Sequence record: OQ420740.1
DNA from: Escherichia phage B9-1
Reading direction: 5' to 3' (one strand)
Length of the DNA: 64,000 nucleotides
Shown: piece by piece, positions 8,192 to 63,115 of the stretch
Layout of the letters: each line of letters begins with the position of its first letter
Position numbering within the stretch: position 1 is the stretch's first letter
Program-made: the position numbers and the translations under genes
Notes under the pieces: model-generated
What the model was told of the DNA's origin: nothing
The model's database searches: none
What the model saw: only the letters and a program-made list of their open reading frames with translations

Positions 8192-9673
8192 TTATTTAAC
8201 GTACTCGATTAATTCCACAGTTCTCCCAAAGCTAGGGATATAATTTTTATTATACCCTTCGGTGAGAACCCATAAAGTATCGTACTTTTTCCACTTGTTG
8301 TCAACAGCCTTTTGTTCAAAGTTATGCTCAAAGTATAGGTCGGTAAGGACGATGACATCTTTTGCATTTGGTATGTTAGCATCCAGATACTCGAACACGC
8401 AGGCGGCTGTTGTGCCCCATGTTGAGTGGACCTCATAGTTGATCATCTCATCGATGTTACCGCGAGTGTATACTTTAACCTCTCCAACCTCGGTTGACCA
8501 ACAGAACATCGTAACCTTAAACTCTTTATACAAATTGCACAACCCGGTGATCTCATTGAACATTTTCTTTAAAGTTCTTTGTGAGATCGATCCAGAAACG
8601 TCTAAAGCCACCACAATATCTATAGTGTTTTCCGGATTACGACCAGGAACAATAACGTGCTGATTCTTGTTTATAGCTCCAACTTTTCGCATTGTGGTGG
8701 TCAAAGACCCAGATCGGCGACCCGGTTTTCTGTAGGTTAACTCAGCCTTCCTTTTAGATAACATACGTTGCTTAATAATATCTATATAATTGATTACAGG
8801 CTTGCCTCTGTTTTTGACAAACTCGCGCACCGCCTCGGGGCAACGACCTCCTGAAGCTTGCATTGCTGCTTCCAACATGTCACCAGAGTCCTGCATGGCC
8901 TGATCTTTATCCGATTGACTGATTACTGGTTGCGGCTGATCATACCCCATAGCCTTTCCAAGATCATCACTAGTGCCACCGTTCCCGCTCATGTGATCAT
9001 CGGTTTGTCGTTTATCTCCTTGGGAGTTCTCTCCTTTACCGTTCTTACTTTTACCGCTATTCTGATCTCTTTGTTTATCAAGAACTGCATAGACGTTCTC
9101 AGCAATCCATCCATGAAACTTCATGTCGCAGTAGCAACTAGCTAAGAAGCCAAAAGGCTTACCTTTTACGAACTCAGTGCTTTTCCCCTTCGGGAAGAAA
9201 ACACAAGGAGGCTTGCTAAAGTCAACCACAAGACCTGTGTTGATAACGTGATCACAAGCAATATTGAACAGTTCCGGCTCAAAGCTTTTACCACGGACCA
9301 GATGATCACAGATAATATGCCCCACCTCATGTGACAGAAGAAAGGCCACCTCTTTCACAGATTTTGGGGAATAGAAAACCTCAGCCATCTCAAACTGCTT
9401 GTCAGTCAGAGATGCTTTAAGAATGGTTTTACGCTCATCTGCCAACCCCATAATGAACTCAGGGCTGTAGTAGATGCGTTTATGGTCTGTTGCCATAGTG
9501 GAGCACCATGTGTGGTTTTCTACGAACTGCAACCCTGACAACAGTGTGCCATAAAACGGCAGCTTTTCAAGAAGGTACATGCGAGCGGCCTGCAGCATTC
9601 GCAAGGCATCATCTTTTTGTGCGGTAATGATTTCTGAACTTCTGCTATCCATTAAAACTCCAGAAGGGGCCAT
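8192..9673 (-). CDS. Putative metallopeptidase (HExxH) fused to von Willebrand factor A domain
   Basis: Track ORF 493 aa; HEVGHIICDH zinc-protease motif; C-terminal VWA MIDAS motif VVALDVSGSIS. Confidence 0.8.
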   Translation of the reverse strand: MAPSGVLMDSRSSEIITAQKDDALRMLQAARMYLLEKLPFYGTLLSGLQFVENHTWCSTMATDHKRIYYSPEFIMGLADERKTILKASLTDKQFEMAEVFYSPKSVKEVAFLLSHEVGHIICDHLVRGKSFEPELFNIACDHVINTGLVVDFSKPPCVFFPKGKSTEFVKGKPFGFLASCYCDMKFHGWIAENVYAVLDKQRDQNSGKSKNGKGENSQGDKRQTDDHMSGNGGTSDDLGKAMGYDQPQPVISQSDKDQAMQDSGDMLEAAMQASGGRCPEAVREFVKNRGKPVINYIDIIKQRMLSKRKAELTYRKPGRRSGSLTTTMRKVGAINKNQHVIVPGRNPENTIDIVVALDVSGSISQRTLKKMFNEITGLCNLYKEFKVTMFCWSTEVGEVKVYTRGNIDEMINYEVHSTWGTTAACVFEYLDANIPNAKDVIVLTDLYFEHNFEQKAVDNKWKKYDTLWVLTEGYNKNYIPSFGRTVELIEYVK

Positions 9674-18634: not shown

Positions 18635-20004
18635 TGGAAAAAGGGCAGTACGATGTAGGCACAGATGCTGCCCTTGTTGCAATCATGAGCGGTGAGAATG
18701 TCTTCGTAAGTGGACCTGGTGGAACCGGGAAGACATATCTTATCAACATGATCCAGTCCATGTATGGAGACTCTTGCATAACGGTTGCCCCGACAGGGGT
18801 AGCCGCTTTAAACGTTAATGGAGCAACAGCGCACCGAACTTTCGATCTTGCCGCAGGTGTGAGCATGGAGTCAGACTGGACAGCAATAAGGGCAAAAACA
18901 GCAAAGCCTCTGAAAAGCAAGGCATTTACCATCCTGATTATCGATGAAATCTCTATGATCCGTGCTGACAAGTTCATAGAGATGGATAGAAAACTCCGCT
19001 TTCTTCGGAAAAATGACAAACCTTTCGGAGGCATTCAGGTGTTATTGTTTGGAGATTTCTACCAAGCACCTCCAGTTGTCTCTTCTATGGAGAAAGAAGC
19101 CTACTTCAACTTCTACCACACAGACCTGTGTTGCTATACAGAATCTTGGGAGGATCTTAATCTTCACAACATAGCCTTAGTAGACCAGTTCCGTCAGGAA
19201 TCTGTTCGCTTCGCCACAATGTTGAACTGTGTTCGTGAAGGTCGTCGCATAAAAGAGGTTGTAGCAGAGCTTAACACTCGTTGCTATCATGGTGGTGTCC
19301 CAACAGATGCCTTGACCATCTGTGCCACCAATAAGCAAGCAGAGGAGGTGAACAGACGTTTCTATGATGCCATCAAGGCCCCAGAGAAGACCTACATTGG
19401 TAAAATGAAAGGTAAGTTCCCTTCCACACTACCTGTGGAGCAGGAAATGAGGCTGAAGATAGGGATGAAGGTTATGATAACCTCAAACGATGTTGACCCT
19501 ACTCACAAAGTTCCGTATTATGTTAACGGGACACGTGCCACAGTGGTAAAATTCAAGACCAAATCCGTAGTAGTTGAGCTAGAAGACGGAACACAGGTTG
19601 AAATTGAGCCAAGATTGTGGGAGAATAACGAGTACAAACCTTCCCAGAGGTACAATATTGCCGAAAGGAAGATGGAGAAGTTCATAGAGAGGGTTGTGAT
19701 CGGGTCTTATGAGCAACTTCCTTTGAAATCTGGGTACGCAGTAACATCGCATAAAAGTCAAGGACTTACGTTAGATTGTTACAACCTAGACCTCGGAAAG
19801 AACGGAGCTTTCTCTCCCGGAATGACGTATGTTGCCTTGAGTCGGGTTAAGACGATACAAGGAATAAACTTGTTGCGTCCATTAAGAGAGGTGGATATTA
19901 TTGTTGACCCGAGAGTCGTAGAGTTTTATAATACAACTTTCCCTGGCTTAGACGAGAAAGTCAGGAAAGATTTTGAAACTAGAGCAGAAAAGGGGGACGT
20001 ATGA
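18634..20004 (+). CDS. SF1B DNA helicase (Dda/Pif1/RecD-like)
   Basis: Track ORF 456 aa; Walker A SGPGGTGKTY; Walker B LIIDEISM; C-terminal GYAVTSHKSQGLT...YVALSRV. Confidence 0.85.
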   Translation: MEKGQYDVGTDAALVAIMSGENVFVSGPGGTGKTYLINMIQSMYGDSCITVAPTGVAALNVNGATAHRTFDLAAGVSMESDWTAIRAKTAKPLKSKAFTILIIDEISMIRADKFIEMDRKLRFLRKNDKPFGGIQVLLFGDFYQAPPVVSSMEKEAYFNFYHTDLCCYTESWEDLNLHNIALVDQFRQESVRFATMLNCVREGRRIKEVVAELNTRCYHGGVPTDALTICATNKQAEEVNRRFYDAIKAPEKTYIGKMKGKFPSTLPVEQEMRLKIGMKVMITSNDVDPTHKVPYYVNGTRATVVKFKTKSVVVELEDGTQVEIEPRLWENNEYKPSQRYNIAERKMEKFIERVVIGSYEQLPLKSGYAVTSHKSQGLTLDCYNLDLGKNGAFSPGMTYVALSRVKTIQGINLLRPLREVDIIVDPRVVEFYNTTFPGLDEKVRKDFETRAEKGDV

Positions 20005-20342
20005 GTTTGTGGAGAAATATCGTTAACTACGTGTGTGGCAATCCGACTCCTGAAGAGAAGGATGTTGTGATTCACGATTTTACTAAAAGATCTCGTGAAA
20101 AAGATCTACTGCTAACAAAGGTGACTGATAAAGATCCTGCAGTAGGGGACTGGGCAGGTTTTGCGTTTACATCGGACAAATACACCTTTAACAAAGGTGA
20201 CTACCTTGTTGTGGATTTTAACGAAGATATTGAGGGTGCTGAACCTTACTATCAAACCCTTATTGTTGCAGGGTGTGTTGATCTCTCTGCAGGCATGCAC
20301 AGTTTGATTCTTTTTGAGCTTGACTCTGAAGACCTTGAGTAG
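20001..20342 (+). CDS. Hypothetical protein (113 aa)
   Basis: Track ORF; overlaps helicase stop. Confidence 0.55.
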   Translation: MSLWRNIVNYVCGNPTPEEKDVVIHDFTKRSREKDLLLTKVTDKDPAVGDWAGFAFTSDKYTFNKGDYLVVDFNEDIEGAEPYYQTLIVAGCVDLSAGMHSLILFELDSEDLE

Positions 20343-20403
20343 TAAGATGTGAGTATAAAGGGGAGGCACTCCTCCCCACAAAAACTAAGGAGAGCACCAA
20401 ACG

Positions 20404-21747
20404 ATGAGTAAAACCAAATTAGAACTTACCTGGATAGGTAAGAACGAGCGCAAAAAGCTAGAGCCTCACATTTTGCGAGAAGATTCGAGCAAGTCTTATC
20501 ACGCCAGTAAAAAGGTGACCGAAAACGATATTTTTGATAATAAACTGATTTTTGGAGATAACTTACTGGCATTGAAGGCACTAGAGCAAGAGTATGCAGG
20601 CAAAGTGAAGTGTGTTTACATAGACCCGCCATTTAATACCGGAAGGGATTTTGAGCACTACGATGATAGCCTGGAGCACTCCATTTGGCTGGGCTTAATG
20701 CGGGACAGATTAGAAATAATTCGTAATCTGCTAAGCGATGATGGAGTGATATTCGTTCACTTAGATGACTGCGAAATGGCTTATTTAAAAGTCTTGATGG
20801 ACGAGATTTTTGGTCGTGCAAATCAGTTAAATACCATATCGATGACTACAAATTGCCCTTCAGGCTTTAAGGCAACAGGAACTACAGTTTTCTCCACAGC
20901 AAACTTTTTGCTTGTATATGCAAAAGATCGTACCAAGAAACCACTTAACAAAATCTATATACCTAAAGAGTATGATACGGGATATAACAAATATCTATTA
21001 AACCCAGATGACCATTATAAAAGTTGGACGTGGTGCGGTATTGCCGATGCGTTTGCAAAGGCCAATGGCTATAAAGATACAAAAGAAGCCAAGAAAAAAC
21101 TGCCTGATACATTTGATGATGAATTAGCACAATTTGCAATTGATAATGCAGAACGTGTATTTCAATCCGTTGCAATTGGCGGTGGTGCCAAAATAAAGAG
21201 AAAAGAAACTATCGAGAAGTCAAAGAAAGATAGGGATAAGGTTTATGTACATCCAAATGAGGATGTCGAAGGCTTTTATATCGCAAATGGTAGGCAAATG
21301 GTCTTTTATTCCAATAGGCTTTTGGAAATTGACGGTGAGATGCAGCCTGCTGAACTAATAACTGATGTTTGGACTGACATTAGTTGGAATGGAATAGCAA
21401 ATGAAGGGGGCGTTAGTTTCAAAAATGGAAAAAAACCTGAAGCGCTTTTGAAGCGGATTTTAAAAATGTGTACGCGAGAAGGAGATTTAGTATTGGATTC
21501 ATTCGGCGGTTCGGGGACTACTGCTGCTGTAGCTCACAAGATGAAAAGACGTTGGATCTCTGTTGAGCTAGGAGATCATTGTCATACCCATATTATTCCA
21601 CGCTTGCAAAAAGTGATCGATGGTGAAGATCAAAGTGGTATTTCTAAATCTGTAAACTGGCAAGGTGGTGGGGGCTTTCGTTATTACAAACTTGCCCAGA
21701 ACTTAGTTGTGAAAGATAAGCTTGACTCAGAAGAAGATTTAGAGTAA
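20404..21747 (+). CDS. DNA N6-adenine/N4-cytosine methyltransferase (beta-class)
   Basis: Track ORF 447 aa; motif IV DPPF then motif I LDSFGGSGTT; N-terminal LELTWIGK. Confidence 0.85.
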   Translation: MSKTKLELTWIGKNERKKLEPHILREDSSKSYHASKKVTENDIFDNKLIFGDNLLALKALEQEYAGKVKCVYIDPPFNTGRDFEHYDDSLEHSIWLGLMRDRLEIIRNLLSDDGVIFVHLDDCEMAYLKVLMDEIFGRANQLNTISMTTNCPSGFKATGTTVFSTANFLLVYAKDRTKKPLNKIYIPKEYDTGYNKYLLNPDDHYKSWTWCGIADAFAKANGYKDTKEAKKKLPDTFDDELAQFAIDNAERVFQSVAIGGGAKIKRKETIEKSKKDRDKVYVHPNEDVEGFYIANGRQMVFYSNRLLEIDGEMQPAELITDVWTDISWNGIANEGGVSFKNGKKPEALLKRILKMCTREGDLVLDSFGGSGTTAAVAHKMKRRWISVELGDHCHTHIIPRLQKVIDGEDQSGISKSVNWQGGGGFRYYKLAQNLVVKDKLDSEEDLE

Positions 21748-21803
21748 TATTTAAAATATCGAAGGAGAGGTCTACTCTTAACACAAGATAAGGAGAACAC
21801 CGA

Positions 21804-22109
21804 ATGATGAAGCGTTATAAACCATATACTTTTGAAATCGATTTCGAACTTGACAATATGCTCACTGTAGAGGCTCAGGCAGTTGTCCAGTTGCCAGATC
21901 CAGAGTGCCGTGATTCTGATGTTGATTATTATGGATTTAGACAGATTACTGATGTGCATGTTTACCACAACGGAGAAGAGGTGGATTTTCACCAACTGCC
22001 GAACGATATGCGCCACTCGATTTACAAACGGGCAGCACGTGAACTAGAGTCCTATCTGGATGCAGCAACAACAGCGGCTGCATTTGCTGAAGAGACAGGA
22101 GGTTTCTGA
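21804..22109 (+). CDS. Hypothetical protein (101 aa)
   Basis: Track ORF with RBS AAGGAGA. Confidence 0.55.
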   Translation: MMKRYKPYTFEIDFELDNMLTVEAQAVVQLPDPECRDSDVDYYGFRQITDVHVYHNGEEVDFHQLPNDMRHSIYKRAARELESYLDAATTAAAFAEETGGF

Positions 22110-22504
22110 TGATTACAGATGTGAAGATTATCCAATACCACCTAACCAAATTAGAAGATGCTGAAAAAGAGCTTTCAGAAGTTCTGAACAGTGGGTATAC
22201 TTTACTGACATGCTCCTGTTCAGACACATACATTGTGTGGACACTTGCTAAGAAGGAAGAACCAGCAGGAATCTTGGTGCCAAACCCTAAGATTATTAGT
22301 GAGGTGGACGACTACTCTCAGGATGGCCTACCAGAAGGCTGGGAAACATGGGAAGGTGGTGAAAACCCTGCACCAGGTAAGTGGGTAAAATACAAACTAC
22401 GTAGCGGTGCACAGTATGCTGACTACTCTGATGACCTAGACTGGAGTCACTCTTCACCAGGATCATCTGCAAGTGCATATGATATTGTTGCTTTTCAGGA
22501 ATAA
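22109..22504 (+). CDS. Hypothetical protein (131 aa)
   Basis: Track ORF; ATGA overlap. Confidence 0.55.
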   Translation: MITDVKIIQYHLTKLEDAEKELSEVLNSGYTLLTCSCSDTYIVWTLAKKEEPAGILVPNPKIISEVDDYSQDGLPEGWETWEGGENPAPGKWVKYKLRSGAQYADYSDDLDWSHSSPGSSASAYDIVAFQE

Positions 22505-22516
22505 GGAGAGAGTGTT

Positions 22517-22999
22517 ATGTCAGATTTTATGTGGAAGGTAGGCTACGCTGCTCCCGAGATGTGCAAGGCCTGCTTTGTGAAAATAGGCCGCGAGGATATC
22601 GACAAAGTTATCTTTAAGTTTCGTGATGTGGCTGTAATCGGCAACCGAGTGCTTAAGCACTTAAAAAATCTGAAACTCACCAAAAAGAAATTCTTCGGGC
22701 TTTTTGAAGAGAAAGTTGATGCTTGGACCCATTGCATTCAGGAAGCTAAATCTCACTACAGTGCTATTGTTACTCCAGAACGGGTAGCCAAGATGGAAGG
22801 ATTCATCAACAGCACGGAGTTTGAGTGCTTAAAAGCTGCCCTTGATAGTTATCCAAAGTGCCTCAAACATCTCGACAAGTATGTAGAAGAGGATGGGGAA
22901 ATGTATCTCACTCTGGATGCATACTATGAGATGCAAGAAATTTTAAATTTAGATTTGACATTGGTATCCACCGAGTATACAATAGGTATCCGGGTTTAA
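22517..22999 (+). CDS. Hypothetical protein (160 aa)
   Basis: Track ORF with RBS AAGGAGAG. Confidence 0.6.
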   Translation: MSDFMWKVGYAAPEMCKACFVKIGREDIDKVIFKFRDVAVIGNRVLKHLKNLKLTKKKFFGLFEEKVDAWTHCIQEAKSHYSAIVTPERVAKMEGFINSTEFECLKAALDSYPKCLKHLDKYVEEDGEMYLTLDAYYEMQEILNLDLTLVSTEYTIGIRV

Positions 23000-23005
23000 C
23001 ACTAG

Positions 23006-23032
23006 GCCCTGCCCGAAAGGGTGGGGCTTTTT
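23006..23032 (+). terminator. Intrinsic terminator (hairpin with G.U pairs, GAAA loop)
   Basis: GCCCTGCCC-gaaa-GGGTGGGGC then TTTTT; identical hairpin recurs at 33152. Confidence 0.7.
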
Positions 23033-23050
23033 GCATTAGGAGACAGCAAA

Positions 23051-23815
23051 TTGAAATTTATCTACAAAGAACACTACCACAAAGGTGTTGTGTGGAGTCT
23101 ATTTGACGGGTCTGGTGGTGCAGTTATTGACTGGGCAAAAGCTGGATATCTGTGCCTGTGCTTTAACGCAGAAGGTGCTGACCATGGCAGTTATGCAGAG
23201 GTGATAACCGATCATCCCAACATTCACTACGTGGATTATTGGATTGACCCGTGGTTCCCTCAAGAAACTTTTTGCATGTACCCAGCTCCAGACTTTATTC
23301 TTGCATTTCCTCCGTGCACGCATTTAGCAGTATCAGGTGCTGCACATTTTAAGAAAAAGCTGGCTAAGGACCCTCTGATTCAAATTAATGCTGTAAAAGA
23401 TGCTCGGGTTGCAGAAGAGTTGGGAGAGATTTACGATTGCCCGTGGCATGTAGAGAATCCTGTGGGAGTTATGTCCACACTGTGGCGAAAACCTGATTAC
23501 CGTTTTCATCCTTCAGATTATGGCGGGTATTTACCGGAGGATGATGTAAACCCCTGGTTTCCTGAATTTATAGCTCCACGGGATGCCTACCCAAAAATAA
23601 CTTGCGGTTGGATAGGCAATGGATTTATAATCCCCGCCACAAAACCTGTCCCGCAAATAGTTGATGTGGTTAGTGGTTATTCCATGCAACACGCTAAGCT
23701 AGGTGGAAAGAGTGCAAGGACGAAGATGATTCGAAGCCTTACACCACGTGGCTGGGCAAGAGCTGTATTCTTAGCAAACGAGCCTGCAGTAAGGAGAAGA
23801 ATTAATGGGCAGTAA
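23051..23815 (+). CDS. Putative C5-cytosine methyltransferase-like protein (TTG start)
   Basis: Track ORF 23021..23815 begins inside the terminator hairpin; TTG 23051 follows RBS AGGAGA; motifs SLFDGSGG (motif I), AFPPC (PC motif), VENPVG (ENV motif). Confidence 0.5.
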   Translation: MKFIYKEHYHKGVVWSLFDGSGGAVIDWAKAGYLCLCFNAEGADHGSYAEVITDHPNIHYVDYWIDPWFPQETFCMYPAPDFILAFPPCTHLAVSGAAHFKKKLAKDPLIQINAVKDARVAEELGEIYDCPWHVENPVGVMSTLWRKPDYRFHPSDYGGYLPEDDVNPWFPEFIAPRDAYPKITCGWIGNGFIIPATKPVPQIVDVVSGYSMQHAKLGGKSARTKMIRSLTPRGWARAVFLANEPAVRRRINGQ

Positions 23816-25883
23816 ATTCATGGCATCTGCATACAACCGTTTCGGTGAGCCAAACCCGAAAGCAACTAAGTATAAAAGTGGGGGAAGTGTGAAACGAGAC
23901 TATCGTGATGAAAAAGAAGTTGAAACTGTAGAGACTGTTTTAGAAAATACTAAAATTGTCCCTGTTCCACAACAAAATATTGGACTGATGGCTGCACAAT
24001 ATTTTGGTGTACGATCATCGCTATCCCAAGAGGATGGTGTAACTGTTACTGCCACCTACTTTCCGTATTACGACCGCTACGGTAATCTATCTGGCTTTAA
24101 AAAGCGTGACTGGACAATCCCTAAAGAGCAAAGGGGCCATTTCTCGGTTGTCGGCATAGTAAAGGCCAACTCCCAGATGTTTGGTCAAAAGCTGTGTGCA
24201 TCCTCCAACAACCGCAAGCAGATTAACGTTTGTGAGGGGGAAGGGGATGTTATTGCAGCGTGGCAGGCTGCATATCAGGTACAAGTAAAAGGAATTCTCA
24301 CCAATGCTAAAGCCCCAGCGAAGGTGAAGCAGTGGGCTAAAGAAGTCCAGGATGGGATCGATGCAGTTATCAACGGCGGCGATCTTGCAGGAAAACCATG
24401 CCTGCCTTTTGTTGGAATTAACTGCGGGTGTGCAAACGCAGTAGACACTTTTGCGAACAATGAGAAATTTATCCGTAGCTACGGAACAGTAGTCCTTGCA
24501 ATGGACAACGATGCAGCTAACGAGGTAGAGAAGCAAAAACACGTTATCAAAGGTGTTGAAGCTACGCATAATATCGCAGCATTTTTGATGGCTGACAACG
24601 TTTACCACGTGGAATACCCAGGTGAGGTAAACGACCCTGATGGTGTAAAAGATATTCGTGACATGCTGAAGGCTAAAAAGCTGGAAGATATTGTCAACAT
24701 GTTCCGTCACCCAGTCAAATATGTGCCTGATGCTGTATCTGATTTAGAAGACTTCTCCATTGAATCTCTTCGTAAGAAGACTTCCAATGGCGTGGATATT
24801 AGTGCAGAGTTCCCTAAACTGCAGAAGATGCTGAAAGGACTCCACAAAGGCACCTTGATGATGCTGACAGGCCCGTCTGGCGGTGGTAAAACAACTGTAG
24901 CCAAGAAGCTGGAACATTGCATTGCAAGATACTTGATGGATCCAACATGCCCTAAAGCTGATGATTATGAAGAGGATGATCGCCTGTGCCTGATTCACCT
25001 TGAAGAGGATCCTGAGGAAGCAATCAACTCTCTGTACGCTAACCAGCTGGGGTTTGATGTTAAAGAGTTTGTTGAAGACCCCAGTCAGTTCCTGACCGAT
25101 CAGGAGCACGCTGAGATTCATCAATCTTGGGCCAAGGCCGGAAAAATCAAAGTGTTCAAGCATTTCGGCTCCATCCCTGTAGATGAGCTGATCACTAAGC
25201 TTAAACAAATGGTGTGCCTGTATCACTGCCGTTACATTGTGCTGGATCACTTGTCTATGGTGATTTCAGGGCTTAATGTTAAGGATGAGCGTAAAGAGCT
25301 TGACATGGCTATGACTCAACTAGCCGCGTTCTGTAAGCAGTTTAATGTGTTTATCTTGGTGATTGCTCACCTGAAGCGCACAGAGATTGTACCTCCGAAG
25401 GATAAGGATGGAAATCCGTTACCTTTCTGGTACCCTGTACGAAAAGAGAACCTTCGCGGTAGTGCCGGATTGGAGCAACTTAGCTGGGTGGTTGTCGGGG
25501 TAGAGGCAGAGGAGATGGTGGATCGTTCCCGTGGACGTGTCCGACTGGTAGGTCTTAAAAACCGCCCAGCAAAAACCTTAGGTATTGCGGACACTCTAGT
25601 TATGGATCCTCACACAGGCAAGTTCCATGATGCCAGCAACTGGTACTGGGACAAAGAAATGCAGATGTTTACAGACGGGGAAGGTGGGGAGGTTGTTTGG
25701 AGACCTCAGGCTATGTTTGAGGATCAGGAGCATGCAGTTGTAGAAACACCTGTGGGCAAGGTTGTGGCTGATAAGGTTGTAACTCCTACTGTTAACCCTG
25801 TTGACACACAGGAAGACCTTCAGTATGATGATCCGTCCTCTAACCACGTTCCGGGTTTTGAAGACGACGAAACACCTTTTTAA
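23805..25883 (+). CDS. Primase-helicase (Toprim primase domain + DnaB/gp4-like helicase)
   Basis: Track ORF 692 aa; Toprim VCEGEGDVIA and VVLAMDNDAAN; Walker A LTGPSGGGKTT. Confidence 0.85.
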   Translation: MGSKFMASAYNRFGEPNPKATKYKSGGSVKRDYRDEKEVETVETVLENTKIVPVPQQNIGLMAAQYFGVRSSLSQEDGVTVTATYFPYYDRYGNLSGFKKRDWTIPKEQRGHFSVVGIVKANSQMFGQKLCASSNNRKQINVCEGEGDVIAAWQAAYQVQVKGILTNAKAPAKVKQWAKEVQDGIDAVINGGDLAGKPCLPFVGINCGCANAVDTFANNEKFIRSYGTVVLAMDNDAANEVEKQKHVIKGVEATHNIAAFLMADNVYHVEYPGEVNDPDGVKDIRDMLKAKKLEDIVNMFRHPVKYVPDAVSDLEDFSIESLRKKTSNGVDISAEFPKLQKMLKGLHKGTLMMLTGPSGGGKTTVAKKLEHCIARYLMDPTCPKADDYEEDDRLCLIHLEEDPEEAINSLYANQLGFDVKEFVEDPSQFLTDQEHAEIHQSWAKAGKIKVFKHFGSIPVDELITKLKQMVCLYHCRYIVLDHLSMVISGLNVKDERKELDMAMTQLAAFCKQFNVFILVIAHLKRTEIVPPKDKDGNPLPFWYPVRKENLRGSAGLEQLSWVVVGVEAEEMVDRSRGRVRLVGLKNRPAKTLGIADTLVMDPHTGKFHDASNWYWDKEMQMFTDGEGGEVVWRPQAMFEDQEHAVVETPVGKVVADKVVTPTVNPVDTQEDLQYDDPSSNHVPGFEDDETPF

Positions 25884-47384: not shown

Positions 47385-47410
47385 AGGGGCTTAAAGGCCC
47401 CTTTCTTTTT
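47385..47410 (+). terminator. Intrinsic terminator
   Basis: AGGGG-cttaaagg-CCCCT then TTCTTTTT. Confidence 0.7.
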
Positions 47411-47412
47411 GT

Positions 47413-49819
47413 CTGCTCTTCTCCTACCATAAACGGCCCTACCTGGCAAGTGGAATAATTGACTAGCCATCAATCCCACACACTGTACAAATATACATAT
47501 AAAATAACTATTGCATAATCTTTCACTGTGTGGTAGCAGGGCCATTTTTACCCGTTTTCTCTCCCAAAAGTGCACGTAATGCCGCTATTGCACAAATTTT
47601 AACCTGATGCACATCTCCAATATCTTGTCAACAACTAAAAATCTTTATAAGTCATACACTTACACAACATAGAAAGCGTGTCCTACGCGAAAAATCGAGT
47701 ATAACTATAGCCGCCAGATCTCAGAATTCACGTACGAACACCATTCTATAGTCTGCAAAGTATTTATTCCAACCACAGAATAACGGAATAGTCAATACCT
47801 GCATAAAATAATTATTCGTGTAAACTGCATAACATAAATCAGCTCAGGTGTCAACATTTTTCGTAAACAGTCCGAAATTATCACGATGAGTTATCATAAA
47901 CAGAGAAATCTTTAGTCGTCTAATGTTTACTGTACATTACTATACTGACTGGAATCATTAGATGACTAAGAGAAAGATAAGAAATAATTAATAATGTAAT
48001 TGTTTTACCTGTAACAATAAGGCAACTATGCAAACGAATGGCATGGCGCGACGGAGTCGCGACATAATATAAAAGCAGTAACAATCACCCCCGTGATAGT
48101 TTTTCTGCAATCTATTACTCAGATCATAGTTGCCTTGTATTTAGTTAATCATGACATAACAAGCAAGGCAACTATAGATCTTCTAATAGTTGCCCTGCTT
48201 TTATATTATGTCATAGATTGTTAGCTTGTTAATTGTTTTCATGCAAACGAATGGCATGGCTTATCATCTCTGTGTAAACTGTTCAGGCGTAAACAGTCTA
48301 TGCGTAAACAGTGAGATATGGAATAGTAACAGCCGTTATTGTGTCATATTGTGTGACATTGTGTCCGGTGTCTGGTGTCCAGTGTGTCAGACAAGTTTTT
48401 CTCCTCTTTGTCAAGTGCTGCATGAAAAATTTACAAACTGGTATGGTAGCATTTTTGCGGCCCTGTTTACATTCAGGAATGTATGTATAATCCTTGTTGT
48501 GTGGGCGTTTAGACGTCTGGACGGTCAGAAGTCTGCAGGTCAATATCTAATCTATTGGTTGCTAACTATATCCCACACAAATAGTAAGAAATATAATTGT
48601 TATATGCGTAAACAGTAACCCATGTTATCAATCCCTGCATGTATCGCCAGTGGTGCGCATAATGGGTATTATGTTAAATTGCCCGTAATGATAACCATTC
48701 TCACAATGATAGGTATTCTCATTCACTCCCACAAGATAGATTGCAAATGTTGTGCCACTGTGTGAACGGCCTGGCCTATTAATTTGCCTCACTGCCTCGA
48801 TATTTGAGAATTATTATAAAAATGAGAAGTATTCCCATTCCGTCCGCCTGGCAGCACTCCTGTAGGACAGGCACAAAATCGGGGTATAACTGGACCTGTT
48901 CAGATATTTCTGGCTGACTCTTCAGGCCTGTGTGGGAAAAGCCAACCTCTCCGGCGGCGGGGAGGGGTCAATTAAAAAATTTACGTGGTGTATGAAGCGC
49001 TCTTCAGGTAAGGCAGGTATTATGGGATGAAACCCTCTTCAGATGATGATATTTGTGGGTGTGATATTTGCTGGAAAGCCAGATATGACGGGACTCCCGG
49101 CAGGGGTGGGGTAGTACAGACAGGGAAAATGTGGGAATGTGATGGAGTAAATTGATCAGGTAGGTAGGATATGGAATATGTTACAAGTATGTTAAATATG
49201 GAGGTAGGATATTTGTAAGATTTGTGTGTAAAATCAAATACTTAAGTGGTGTTGTGGTATTTTCTATAAATAATTCAAGTTTAATAGGTGATATTTGTCT
49301 CCATCCACTTTGTGTGGTAAACAGATTCTAATTGAATTGGTTTACAAGTGTATATAAAGTATACAAATTAAAGATATAAGAAACCCCCCTCCCCCTTCGG
49401 CTACCATTCACCTTTTCCTCTGACTGGTACTTAAACACTTATTCAGACTCTTCAGGTTATCACCCATATACTATATGGCAGTGACTGGTGTCCTCCGGCC
49501 CCTCTTTCGTCACCCGTCCGCTTCGCCATGCTAATGCCATAGCCAAATGTTCGGTTGTTCACCCTGTTCACTCAGGTGTATCTCCATACCCCTTCAAACC
49601 GAAGAGAACAGAAAACCCGAATTACTCGGTAAAAGAAAAGAGAAGAACTTAATTTTATCAAGATAGGCAAGAATGTCAAGGGATGACTGCTCACTAAACA
49701 AGCAAACAGTCATGTGTGGTGGGTAAGTAACTGTGTTGGTAGGAAATTTAGTTGAAAGATGTTATAGGTGCCTCCAGAACCTTAGCTGGGCAGCTAAACC
49801 TGCAAAGCAGACTTGTGTG
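47413..49819. other. 2.4-kb non-coding, repeat-dense region between convergent gene blocks
   Basis: No convincing ORF; CGTAAACAGT x4, ATGCAAACGAATGGCATGGC x2, AAGGCAACTAT x4 in alternating orientation, palindrome GTCGCGAC, CTCTTCAGG x4. Confidence 0.7.
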
Positions 49820-50101
49820 TCAGTCCAAAGGTTCATCTACTACTTCACTGAAATCAATGGTCAGAGTCTCTTCCCAACCATCAATCTCAGCACCGGAGTA
49901 GAGATCTTTAGGGTCTACATCAAGGGCTTCCGCAACAGCATCTATATTTAACACCTCTGGCAGGTATGATTCATCAAATTCAAGGTAAATCAGGCCACGA
50001 GTGTTGTCAGCCCCACCAAATATTTCTATTTTCATGAAATCTCCTCTGGAAATGAGAGTGTGAACGGGGTTTATACGTTCCAATACGATGGAATTATGCA
50101 C
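49820..50101 (-). CDS. Hypothetical protein (93 aa)
   Basis: Track ORF; last gene of leftward block. Confidence 0.55.
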   Translation of the reverse strand: MHNSIVLERINPVHTLISRGDFMKIEIFGGADNTRGLIYLEFDESYLPEVLNIDAVAEALDVDPKDLYSGAEIDGWEETLTIDFSEVVDEPLD

Positions 50102-51297: not shown

Positions 51298-51351
51298 CTC
51301 TGATCTCCTTCATAGATAGTAAAAAGAGGGGCTTTGAGCCCCTCTTTGTCA

Positions 51352-51657
51352 TTATTCTACAGAGCGTTTGAACAGAATGTCTGCTTCAGACATGTGCTCA
51401 ACCTCCTCTTCGATTTTAGCTCGACGTTTTTCAGCTTCGTAGCGGATATCGAACTCGGTAGCCACCAATGACTTGATAAACTTAGGAGAATACAAGTGAT
51501 CCTGTTTCTCGACAAGAATAATATCCTTGATAGCGTCTTTCAGATCTTTAATCTGAAGCTGAAGTTCCACCAGCTCTTCAATTGTTTTACGGAGGCGATC
51601 ACGCTCTGCAATGTCAGAAGGAAGAGAGGTGAACAGTTCAACTTTAGATTTAGCCAT
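51352..51657 (-). CDS. Hypothetical coiled-coil protein (101 aa)
   Basis: Track ORF; charged heptad-like sequence. Confidence 0.55.
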   Translation of the reverse strand: MAKSKVELFTSLPSDIAERDRLRKTIEELVELQLQIKDLKDAIKDIILVEKQDHLYSPKFIKSLVATEFDIRYEAEKRRAKIEEEVEHMSEADILFKRSVE

Positions 51658-61199: not shown

Positions 61200-61484
61200 C
61201 TACCAGGTCACTGTCAAGTAGGCAACTGTGTTATTTTTCTCCGGGGAGATGCCAACAACATCCACCTGCAGACCTCCTGCCCTCAAATCCCCAACGATGT
61301 GTGGGAAGTAGTCTGAGAGGTGTGATGGAAGATTTATCGAAAATCCGCATCCCAGAAAGCCTGCTAACGCCTTATTTTGTATCTCCCCTACAATCGCATC
61401 ATAAATGGAGTTAAGCTCGTCAGGGAGAGTTACAGGACGTTTTAGCGCTAACTGGTGCAACTTGTCCTTAGCACTCATTTTCAT
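61200..61484 (-). CDS. Hypothetical protein (~94 aa)
   Basis: Track ORF 61200..61553; internal ATG at 61484 gives an ATGA overlap with the upstream stop and avoids a 73-nt overlap. Confidence 0.5.
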   Translation of the reverse strand: MKMSAKDKLHQLALKRPVTLPDELNSIYDAIVGEIQNKALAGFLGCGFSINLPSHLSDYFPHIVGDLRAGGLQVDVVGISPEKNNTVAYLTVTW

Positions 61485-62014
61485 TTCAAGTCTGCCTCCG
61501 GAGGTGCCAACCACATAAATGGTGGTAGGTCTAAACGGTTCTTCTTGTCCCACACAAAATATGCATATGCTTGCCCGTCAGTTCTGCCATTCGATTGGAA
61601 TGATGGACGCTTAGATATTGTGATCACAGTGGTAGGGGCATTATCAAGCCACCATTCAAATCTGGCCTTGCTTTCCAGAAAATTAAGACGCAAAAGCATA
61701 ATAACTACGTCGGCATCTTTCAACGCCTTGTCCACAAACTCACGAGCCAGGCTGTACGGCGGGTTGGTGATAATACAGTCAACATGGTTGTATTCTGTAT
61801 TCAGATAGTCAACACCTTCTTGGATTTCTCCCCATGCAGATCCTAACGGCATACGGGAGTAGAACACACCTGAGGCGCTATTCCTGCAAGGCTCCAAATA
61901 GGTCCAATCTTCTGGGAACGGGATGAGGTCATACAACCCTTCTGCACACCACTCTGGTGTCACATATTCATCATAGGCGTTACGTTGTTCGTCAGGTTTT
62001 CTAGCACAAGTCAT
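61481..62014 (-). CDS. Small phage Dam-like DNA N6-adenine methyltransferase
   Basis: Track ORF 177 aa; catalytic motif DCIITNPPYS; size fits the short phage Dam family. Confidence 0.7.
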   Translation of the reverse strand: MTCARKPDEQRNAYDEYVTPEWCAEGLYDLIPFPEDWTYLEPCRNSASGVFYSRMPLGSAWGEIQEGVDYLNTEYNHVDCIITNPPYSLAREFVDKALKDADVVIMLLRLNFLESKARFEWWLDNAPTTVITISKRPSFQSNGRTDGQAYAYFVWDKKNRLDLPPFMWLAPPEADLK

Positions 62015-62065
62015 GCAAATCTCCAGATCATAAAAGCCCTCCGAAGAGGGCTTTAAGATTAATGT

Positions 62066-63115
62066 TTAAGCTTCTTCGATAATTCCTGCGCCCAGGATTT
62101 TTTCATTGAGCTCTTTTGCTGTTTTAATAATATTGTCCACCAGACGCTTGCGGGTCTTATCTTTAACCTGAACTTCTTCACCTCCGTTCAGGGTGGTTTT
62201 CAATTGGGACAAAATGTCCTGAAGCTCTACCACAGAGAATCGCTGCAGATCTTCCGAGGTAATCTCACCCAGTGCAATCTTAACGGTCTCACCACTCTCC
62301 ATCTGCAGATTCAGGAACACAGTGTGAACATCACCTTTCATACCATTTGCTTTTGCAGACTCAACAGCGTGAACCAGCTCGTCCAGAGATGTGCATTGGT
62401 GAATCTCTGGCAGGCCTGCTTCGCCTAGCACACCTTCTTCATCACTTTTTGCCAAAAGCTTTTTCGGTTTCTGCCCATTCTGAATGCGCTGAATGTTTTC
62501 ATCGTCCAGAATGATAGCACCAGTTCGAGCTGCCAGCTCTTCTCCATCCAACCACACTTCTCCACCAGCCGTGATGGATGCGATCTCATCTTCTGTCAGA
62601 ACCCCACCGTAGTATTTTTCGATCAGGCGTTCAAAACGTTTCTTCCAGTAGTTGACCTGAGTATTCATGTTCACACCGTTGCCATAGGTGCCACCTTGAT
62701 AGTAGTGGAACATAAACTCTGTGTCCGGAGCCACAGTTCGTTCTTTGCAACCCAGCCATAAGATTGTTCCTGCTGAGCAGCACATCCCTTCAGCGTGTAC
62801 AACAACGCTTGCCTGAGACTCGCGGAATGCCTGCAAATACGCCATGGCAATGTGGACACAACCACCAGGGCTGTTAACAATTACACGGATACTTTCTTCC
62901 GGCTGTGCCATACGAATTGTTTGCAAACGGGACATATGATCCTGCAAATCATCAAGATCGTCAATATAAAGCACGTGGTCAACAACTGGCGTTGGGTAGC
63001 TGTATGTTTCCATAATACCACCGGGCATACCAAACATTTTATTACTCATCGGTTCGAAGCCGTTCTGTTTTTCTTTCATGCCGTGTACCATGGTGCTGCG
63101 AGGTGTTAAATTCAT
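62066..63115 (-). CDS. ClpP-like serine protease with C-terminal extension
   Basis: Track ORF 349 aa; VNSPGG, catalytic Ser in GMCCSAGT, His in FMFHYYQGG; ~150-aa acidic C-terminal extension. Confidence 0.7.
   Translation of the reverse strand: MNLTPRSTMVHGMKEKQNGFEPMSNKMFGMPGGIMETYSYPTPVVDHVLYIDDLDDLQDHMSRLQTIRMAQPEESIRVIVNSPGGCVHIAMAYLQAFRESQASVVVHAEGMCCSAGTILWLGCKERTVAPDTEFMFHYYQGGTYGNGVNMNTQVNYWKKRFERLIEKYYGGVLTEDEIASITAGGEVWLDGEELAARTGAIILDDENIQRIQNGQKPKKLLAKSDEEGVLGEAGLPEIHQCTSLDELVHAVESAKANGMKGDVHTVFLNLQMESGETVKIALGEITSEDLQRFSVVELQDILSQLKTTLNGGEEVQVKDKTRKRLVDNIIKTAKELNEKILGAGIIEEA

Follow-up and report, generated by a model that had tools for sequence, protein, structure and literature searches.

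The modification subunit (Mod) of the type III restriction-modification (RM) system EcoP15I dimerizes through its N-terminal domain (NTD) and its methyltransferase (MTase) domain, and can be a stand-alone methylase (PMC4490356). In the EcoP15I structure, the MTase domain of Mod ends at residue 516, and the C-terminal domain (CTD; residues 539–644) of ModA makes "extensive contacts" with the restriction subunit, Res (PMC4490356). Two further studies described phage MTases as triggers of retrons. Dcm of phage K42 triggers retron Ec86 and increases 5-methylcytosine (5mC) in multicopy single-stranded DNA (msDNA), as measured by liquid chromatography–mass spectrometry (bioRxiv 10.1101/2023.08.16.553469; cited as Wang et al., Cell Rep 2024). 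In a 2025 paper, an "N6 adenine methyltransferase" of the BASEL phage Bas51 was found to trigger retrons Asa1 and Squ1 (PMC12548924). Here, we describe three MTase genes, referred to as P1, P2 and P3, in a 64,000-nucleotide (nt) stretch of Escherichia phage B9-1 (OQ420740.1; "the window", from whose first nucleotide all positions are counted). We hold with good confidence that they are genuine, separately acquired orphan DNA MTases, a confidence that applies to the best explanation as a whole, including the origin and role proposed for P1.

The window derives from a Vequintavirus (rV5-like) phage of E. coli. Positions 20000–24000 are 98% identical at the nt level to Escherichia phages ECP2303 and S127 BCL3, and 92–97% identical to more than 100 rV5-like myoviruses of the genus Vequintavirus; there are 117 related records. 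An earlier note, made from the sequence alone, had proposed three MTases of different classes, and a check of the open reading frames (ORFs) combined with a motif scan found all three genes, with the motifs the note quoted, in the places it gave. The classes also differ as it said: beta (motif IV before motif I), C5, and gamma order (X-I-IV). There are exactly three MTase genes in the window. The motif scan, which covered the 146 window ORFs of at least 80 amino acids (aa), found no amino-MTase motif beyond P1–P3. An ORF at 8192–9673 (− strand) contains PPC and ENV and lacks FxGxG; it occupies the position of a gene that relatives annotate as a metallopeptidase/von Willebrand factor A (VWA) protein. 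The profile matches of P1–P3 are far above chance level, and GenBank labels in relatives agree in kind: adenine/type III methylase, "Dcm-like C5 cytosine methyltransferase" and "N6 adenine methyltransferase". The observation is thus mostly already known, since more than 100 GenBank relatives annotate the genes and P3 has been characterized at the bench. What is modestly new is the host origin of P1 and its lack of the CTD, as a counter-defence of a known kind.

The type III Mod-like protein P1 and its source

P1 (20404–21747, + strand) encodes a predicted beta-class N6-adenine-type DNA MTase of 447 aa. Its motifs, DPPF at residue 74 and FGGSG at residue 367, place (D/S)PP(Y/F) N-terminal to FxGxG, with the target-recognition domain (TRD) in between. 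P1 matches Pfam PF01555 (N6_N4_Mtase) with E=9.8e-44 and 150.4 bits, against a curated cut-off of 26.7, and the PADLOC model MTase_III (PDLC03636) with E=6e-203, covering model positions 2–445 of 575. The closest relatives in the PDB are type III Mods, namely 6k0w (2e-29) and EcoP15I (6.5e-23). Full-length similarity across the NTD, MTase domain and TRD assigns P1 as a Mod subunit of the type III RM class. Like the EcoP15I/EcoP1I Mod (PDB 4zcf), P1 has the beta-class motif order, an NTD, a split MTase domain and a central TRD, with codons 190–352 matching the position of the EcoP15I TRD (aa 263–384) between the two MTase half-domains. Unlike that protein, to which it is only distantly related, P1 has DPPF instead of DPPY, no CTD and no Res partner. 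Alignments to the PADLOC model, to the host Mod described below and to EcoP15I all fail to find the C-terminal Res-contacting domain. The last homologous residue of P1 is 439, opposite about residue 520 of EcoP15I Mod in the alignment. Because P1 ends before an EcoP15I-type CTD, the recognition and methylation parts appear to be retained and the nuclease-docking part to be gone. There is no res gene adjacent to P1, whose phage neighbours are a PIF1/Dda-like helicase gene and small ORFs.

Evidence on the source of P1 came from its bacterial relatives. Scanning bacteria with one genome for each species identified 80 loci with full-length relatives of 35–94% identity. When the flanking ORFs were clustered, 68 of the 80 loci had a same-strand gene of ~900 aa downstream, and an upstream gene of ~1000 aa was seen in 49. 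The downstream gene encodes a type III Res, which matches PADLOC REase_III with E=4e-232 and has Pfam ResIII along with an endonuclease domain; the upstream gene encodes an SNF2 helicase that PADLOC scores as DrmD-like. Mod genes at the Res-linked loci are longer than P1, extending ~420 nt past the P1-homologous part; the E. coli Mod has 568 aa.

In E. coli itself, a blastn search with P1 found a chromosomal gene with 94% nt identity over nt 1–1330 of the query in 24 of 5426 complete genomes. Strains with the gene include 2014C-3011, SMN013SH2, CFSAN004176 and 90-1. In a further 80 of the 5426, only the conserved ends are common with P1, as would be expected of alleles with other recognition domains. 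In the two E. coli genomes examined, the P1-like mod gene lies in an integrase-bearing island adjoining the tRNA-Sec gene (selC), in the order helix-turn-helix (HTH) regulator, SNF2, Abi_2, AIPR, Mod (568 aa) and Res-like helicase (912 aa; WP_024226320.1). P1 and the island Mod (WP_024226319.1) are identical at 421 of 443 aa (95%) over residues 1–443, and their predicted recognition domains are identical. A three-way DNA alignment was used to set the limits of host homology. The host-derived segment runs from 20391 to 21720 (+ strand), that is, from ~10 nt ahead of the ATG through codon 439, with ~94% nt identity to the selC-island mod, and the host gene continues for ~125 codons past the point at which homology ends. 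Unlike the island Mod, P1 lacks these last ~125 residues, which correspond to the CTD, and has none of Res, SNF2, Abi and AIPR next to it; it is located in the phage replication operon, and its last eight codons are copied from a phage ORF.

There are 20 aa differences between P1 and the host Mod in 440 codons, none of which falls within codons 190–352 (20971–21459, + strand), a block that spans the predicted TRD; the probability of this by chance is ~1e-4. The ratio of nonsynonymous to synonymous substitution (dN/dS) is 0.087 between phage and host and 0.065 between phages, which shows that P1 is under purifying selection. At synonymous sites, the host branch is ~0.055 and lies between two phage copies with branches of ~0.125 and ~0.175. 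Such a short host branch between two phage copies fits a single capture before the P1-carrying phages diverged.

P1 is present in 85 of 116 related phage records. Where it is missing, as in Bas59, the absence is clean, and the leader (...AAACGATGA) continues directly into the next ORF. In the P1-carrying phages, the host fragment thus sits at the start codon of that ORF. In the window, the 3' junction lies in a diverged direct repeat (21719–21810, + strand) of positions 20317–20407, with 68 of 94 positions identical in a local alignment (score 74; shuffle maximum 39). The source copy consists of the tail of the upstream ORF, the leader and ATGA. The 92-nt repeat provides the last eight codons of P1 (LDSEEDLE) and its stop, as well as the leader of the next ORF; the ORF upstream of P1 ends in ...ELDSEDLE. 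In Bas51, the 3' junction of P1 is different, with a few more host bases followed by a frameshifted end, and the CTD is likewise absent.

Taken together with its class, these data make P1 look like an anti-restriction device against one host system; the activity, the motif and the anti-restriction role are all inferred from sequence. We propose that each of P1–P3 would place marks at one kind of site in the DNA of the phage itself. P1, as a type III Mod captured from a bacterial host, would retain the dimerization N-terminus, the catalytic core and the recognition domain, and would thereby write the "self" mark of the selC-island system on phage DNA without docking to Res. Progeny would then be pre-protected against strains with the island, whichever host they had been grown on. 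More speculatively, P1 may also poison the host Mod-Res assembly by forming heterodimers through the retained N-terminal and MTase interfaces. The presence or absence of P1 in Vequintaviruses (~73% and ~27%) would track exposure to strains that carry the island. This account, in which a component of host immunity was trimmed into a counter-defence, is put forward tentatively; we find it possible, though not quite probable.

Several observations made alongside concern the same genes. The set of SNF2 (DrmD-like), type III Mod and type III Res genes is conserved across phyla (49–68 of the 80 loci), and this linkage may represent a distinct type III-like defence variant. An example of the selC island is found in E. 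coli SMN013SH2 (NZ_CP023673.1, 48302–57651), where the first gene encodes an HTH protein that is MAD1-like. Assignment of the island to MADS was considered and rejected: NCBI calls the first gene MAD1-like, but the rest does not match the described eight-gene MADS operon. Two relatives of P1 with 94% and 91% protein identity come from Catenovulum agarivorans DS-2 (contig31) and a Gammaproteobacteria metagenome-assembled genome; these are probably Vequintavirus or enterobacterial contigs that were mis-binned into those assemblies. Between P1 and P2 (21804–22999) lie three conserved ORFs of 101, 131 and 160 aa (PHROGs 4240, 11995 and 12900). Their strong matches are only to PHROGs of unknown function, with weak matches to "DNA methyltransferase" and "DNA ligase" PHROGs. 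They were not counted as part of the MTase story, given that phages without P1 carry them too.

P3 and adenine methylation, and a fourth methyltransferase

P3 (61481–62014, − strand) encodes a minimal gamma-order N6-adenine DNA MTase of 177 aa, with no separate TRD. Its NPPY motif is at residue 84. It matches PHROG 799 with E=5.1e-67; its matches to Pfam MTase families all fall short of the cut-offs. When 40 homologues are aligned, the conserved elements are YxTP, EPCxGxG and a T-N-P-P that does not vary, in the gamma order X-I-IV with no insert, and the family profile matches M.TaqI's catalytic domain (E=6e-06). The AlphaFold2 (AF2) model, with a mean predicted local distance difference test (pLDDT) score of 89.1, has a fold resembling gamma-class DNA adenine MTases and Dim1/KsgA, and the modelled protein leaves no room for a separate recognition domain. 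P3 shares the X-I-IV order, the NPPY motif and the Rossmann fold with the M.TaqI catalytic domain and type I HsdM, and differs from M.TaqI in lacking a TaqI-like TRD. P3 and the alpha-class Dam of E. coli or T4 are unrelated; there was no Pfam match to alpha-class Dam at E<=0.1. The small phage Dam family PF05869/TIGR01712 (HP1- and T1-type) has, like P3, a ~170-aa catalytic domain that acts on GATC. P3 falls below the curated cut-offs of these models, with 19.2 versus 28.1 bits for PF05869 and 16.1 versus 97 bits for TIGR01712. The description of P3 as "Dam-like" in the earlier note is therefore apt for specificity, as shown below, and not for family.

Direct evidence for the activity of P3 comes from Bas51 (WalterGehring), whose protein bas51_0176 is identical to P3 at 177 of 177 residues and is encoded at the same position, beside a ClpP-like protease gene. 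There is no protein difference between the two, and the activity was measured in Bas51 rather than in the present isolate. Bas51 mutants that escape the retrons carry D69G, D79G or T83P, and the T83P phage is without GATC methylation (PMC12548924). Three Bas51 genes share the product name "N6 adenine methyltransferase", and only bas51_0176, like P3, has D69, D79 and T83; the retron-triggering enzyme is thus the P3-identical protein. Methylated adenines in wild-type Bas51 numbered 1405 at GATC, 509 at GTAC and 576 elsewhere, as compared to 35, 511 and 349, respectively, in the T83P phage (PMC12548924). The Bas51 genome contains 703 GATC sites (1406 adenines) and 258 GTAC sites (516 adenines). 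Comparing the two sets of numbers, virtually every GATC and ~99% of GTAC adenines are methylated, with the GATC methylation being due to P3. The P3-identical protein has thus been shown to be a GATC-specific N6-adenine MTase that modifies GATC on both strands, with N6-methyladenine (m6A) at GATC falling upon mutation. The expectation in the earlier note that the phage encodes orphan DNA MTases holds for all three genes.

The GTAC methylation of Bas51 is independent of P3, which leaves two candidate sources: the P1 orthologue, bas51_0070, and a fourth Vequintavirus MTase, bas51_0200, encoded outside the window (MZ501111.1, 124069–124887). This 272-aa protein is gamma-class (YYTNPE...EPSAGRG...GNPPF), belongs to PHROG 5172 ("unknown function") and is found in all 120 related records with 90–100% nt identity. 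M.HpyAXII, a known adenine MTase for GTAC, likewise belongs to the gamma class, and its motif IV Asn is at 87 versus 85. The type III Mods known so far have asymmetric sites and methylate a single strand. Together, these features favour bas51_0200 as the GTAC MTase by analogy. A homologue search made to link bas51_0200 to M.HpyAXII returned no named relatives, and PF26055, which is listed for some of the homologues, is absent from the Pfam copy searched. In three bacterial neighbourhoods, a small unannotated ORF lies downstream; it has no match in the PDB, R.PabI-like proteins included.

The alternative is that P1 makes the T83P-independent GTm6AC of Bas51, acting on a palindrome in the manner of a type II orphan MTase. 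The GTAC methylation, at 509–511 of 516 adenines, does not need P3, E. coli K-12 is not known to have a GTAC MTase, and the P1 orthologue is one of only two adenine-MTase candidates left in Bas51. We nevertheless consider this quite unlikely. P1 is a predicted type III Mod with Res-linked homologues, and known enzymes of that kind recognize asymmetric sites and modify one strand; the competing candidate is gamma-class like M.HpyAXII and conserved in 120 of 120 relatives. Moreover, the 349 other methylated adenines of the T83P phage are near the number estimated for a 5-bp asymmetric motif in 140 kb (~275). An assignment of GTAC m6A to P1 by elimination was accordingly dropped once bas51_0200 had emerged as a further candidate and P1 as a type III Mod. 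With bas51_0200 as the favoured GTAC enzyme, the sites of P1 are expected to be among these 349 unassigned adenines. GTAC itself occurs at 0.59–0.65 of the expected number in the phage, versus 0.90 in a 50-kb sample of E. coli, a depletion that fits past restriction pressure; GATC and CCWGG are not depleted in the phage.

The short C5-cytosine methyltransferase P2

P2 (23051–23815, + strand) encodes a short C5-cytosine DNA MTase of 254 aa. Its start is the TTG at 23051, which is preceded by an AGGAGA ribosome-binding site, and relatives in GenBank have the same 765-nt gene annotated; the Bas51 counterpart is bas51_0074. A longer alternative ORF, from a GTG at 23021, would start within a terminator-like G+C-rich hairpin followed by a T-run (23004–23029, + strand; 11 stem pairs). 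Upstream of this putative terminator is a putative promoter-like site (22955–22983, + strand; TTGACA-17-TACAAT, 11 of 12 matches); both were found by consensus scans. At its 3' end, P2 overlaps the primase/helicase gene, which starts at 23805, by 11 nt.

Assignment of P2 to the C5 class rests on its motifs, family and modelled structure. FDGSG, FPPC and ENP correspond to the catalytic motifs I (FxGxG), IV (PC) and VI (ENV). There was no Pfam match at E<=0.1, with the curated cut-off of PF00145 not reached, and a few homologues have a precomputed PF00145 match. P2 matches PHROG 757 with E=5.8e-87. Sequence-only searches of the PDB, with the single sequence or a profile, gave only marginal matches (E 0.5–1). 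The earlier note had called for a structure search with this ORF; the AlphaFold model (pLDDT 90.9) has DNMT3A and DNMT3B catalytic domains as its top Foldseek matches, and the C5-MTase fold is thus present in P2. P2 shares this fold and catalytic motifs I, IV and VI with DNMT3A/3B, M.HhaI and M.HaeIII, and the TRD of DNMT3 is also very small. P2 differs from these enzymes in having only 13–18% identity to them, and is at least 70 residues shorter than bacterial type II C5-MTases.

The earlier note considered P2 unusually short and suggested that it may lack a TRD. Neither view is borne out by the P2 family. A homologue search returned 4176 proteins, of which the best 120 are all 219–262 aa, and a tblastn search with a family member matched 1533 of 50,697 phage records; a length of ~225–260 aa is normal for the family. 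Among 34 family sequences, the G-S-G of the S-adenosylmethionine (SAM) loop, F-P-P-C89, E135-N136-P137 and R-S-L-T-P-R are invariant or nearly so. Between WRKPD (motif VI/VIII region) and SLTPRG (motif IX) are ~78 residues that include a hypervariable loop, of which there are two forms; residues 150–230 of P2 are otherwise conserved in these 34 sequences. P2 is thus short for a C5-MTase, normal for its own family and not TRD-less, with a recognition region that is much reduced.

The closest characterized relative provides further support. The Dcm of phage KarlJaspers/Bas06 (236 aa) has 54% identity to P2; K42 is near-identical to that phage, and this homologue is active in vivo. Both proteins belong to the same short C5-MTase family, and the residues at which mutations inactivate K42 Dcm (C82A, E128A, K175A and K176A) correspond to P2 C89, E135, K182 and I183. 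The catalytic residues are therefore at equivalent positions; the differences are at K176, which is I183 in P2, in the variable loop (DNPGW... versus YSMQH...), and in the phage family to which the two belong. By analogy, P2 most likely makes 5mC at a short motif. CCWGG has been suggested as the motif of the 54%-identical homologue, and the specificity of P2 may differ, given that its variable loop is not of the K42 type. That P2 is instead inactive or a non-DNA enzyme, being too short for a TRD, is most improbable: the 34 homologues show no variation at the catalytic Cys and Glu or in the SAM-loop residues, a family member of the same length methylates DNA in vivo, and the family is kept in 1533 phage records.

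Roles of the methyltransferases, and other features of the window

In the earlier note, the three classes were taken to suggest broad self-protection. If the enzymes jointly protected against host restriction systems, one might point to the three classes in the window and the fourth MTase elsewhere in the genome, to the methylation in Bas51 of every GATC and ~99% of GTAC adenines, and to the depletion of GTAC. The BASEL study, however, found Vequintavirinae to be "exceptionally susceptible" to RM and not effectively protected from the tested systems of types I, II and III (PMC8594841), and each MTase covers only its own motif. Broad protection is hence very unlikely. MTase protection is motif-specific, and it comes at the cost of the methylases being sensed by retrons: since P3 and a P2 homologue are retron triggers, the MTases are also liabilities.

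A further alternative is that the methylases serve phage DNA transactions, such as replication, packaging, gene timing or the avoidance of MutH nicking at unmethylated GATC. P1 and P2 lie inside the replication module, with P2 overlapping the primase/helicase gene, and P2, P3 and the fourth MTase belong to the core genome, being present in 116–120 of ~120 relatives. The phages remain RM-sensitive (PMC8594841). In addition, the T83P phage is almost without GATC methylation although it was presumably grown on a dam+ K-12 strain, indicating that it is P3 that supplies the GATC marks. Against such a role, loss-of-function P3 phages of Bas51 still plate at 1–4e10 plaque-forming units (PFU)/ml, compared to ~5–6e10 for wild type (PMC12548924), and P1 is accessory and mirrors the specificity domain of a host RM system. 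We regard this alternative as unlikely, though less so than broad protection.

The preferred reading, of orphan MTases that each mark one kind of site, with P1 as a trimmed host Mod directed against the selC-island system, has several points that weigh against it. About 27% of relatives manage without P1. The restriction sensitivity of Vequintavirinae in every system tested in BASEL means that any benefit would be narrow. Motif IV of P1 is DPPF and not DPPY, so N4-cytosine activity is conceivable, and dimerization and methylation by a Mod without a CTD are extrapolated from EcoP15I, to which P1 is only ~25–30% related. The YSMQH... loop of P2 is unlike the DNPGW... loop of the characterized homologue, and the published nanopore run of Bas51 called 6mA only. 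In the literature, neither restriction digests (RsaI, KpnI) nor 5mC data were found for rV5-like phages, and papers on Druantia and retron Eco2 mention Vequintavirinae and not their MTases.

P1 provides a clean, datable case of a lytic phage taking the methylase of a restriction system from its host species, with 94% nt identity, the recognition domain untouched and the Res-docking domain left behind. Such an origin predicts which E. coli strains can be infected by phages with and without P1, a prediction relevant to picking rV5-like phages for therapy or biocontrol. With four methylases in phages that are nonetheless restriction-sensitive, at least one of which (P3) triggers retrons and another of which (P2) has a 54%-identical homologue that triggers Ec86, these phages are well suited to a comparison of what methylation gains and what it costs.

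Three other observations were made in the window. A region of ~2.5 kb (47400–50000) has no convincing ORF, and relatives have no gene annotated at the equivalent position. Gene orientation and cumulative GC skew both turn here, and two perfect repeats lie in the region: a direct one of 20 nt (48028 and 48241) and an inverted one of 18 nt (48061 and 48195). Searches of the region for tRNA genes and Rfam families found no match; it may be an origin or control region. At 51314–51407 (− strand) there is a weak Rfam match to the small RNA family sraA, at 37.7 bits (E=0.003) where the gathering score is 56; it is probably due to chance. Lastly, searches of a phage collection with positions 20000–24000 and 61400–62100 identified 16–20 GenBank records named "Campylobacter phage" (MG0656xx, host C. 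jejuni) that are 92.5–94.7% identical to this Vequintavirus, which suggests that those records represent mislabelled or contaminating phages.

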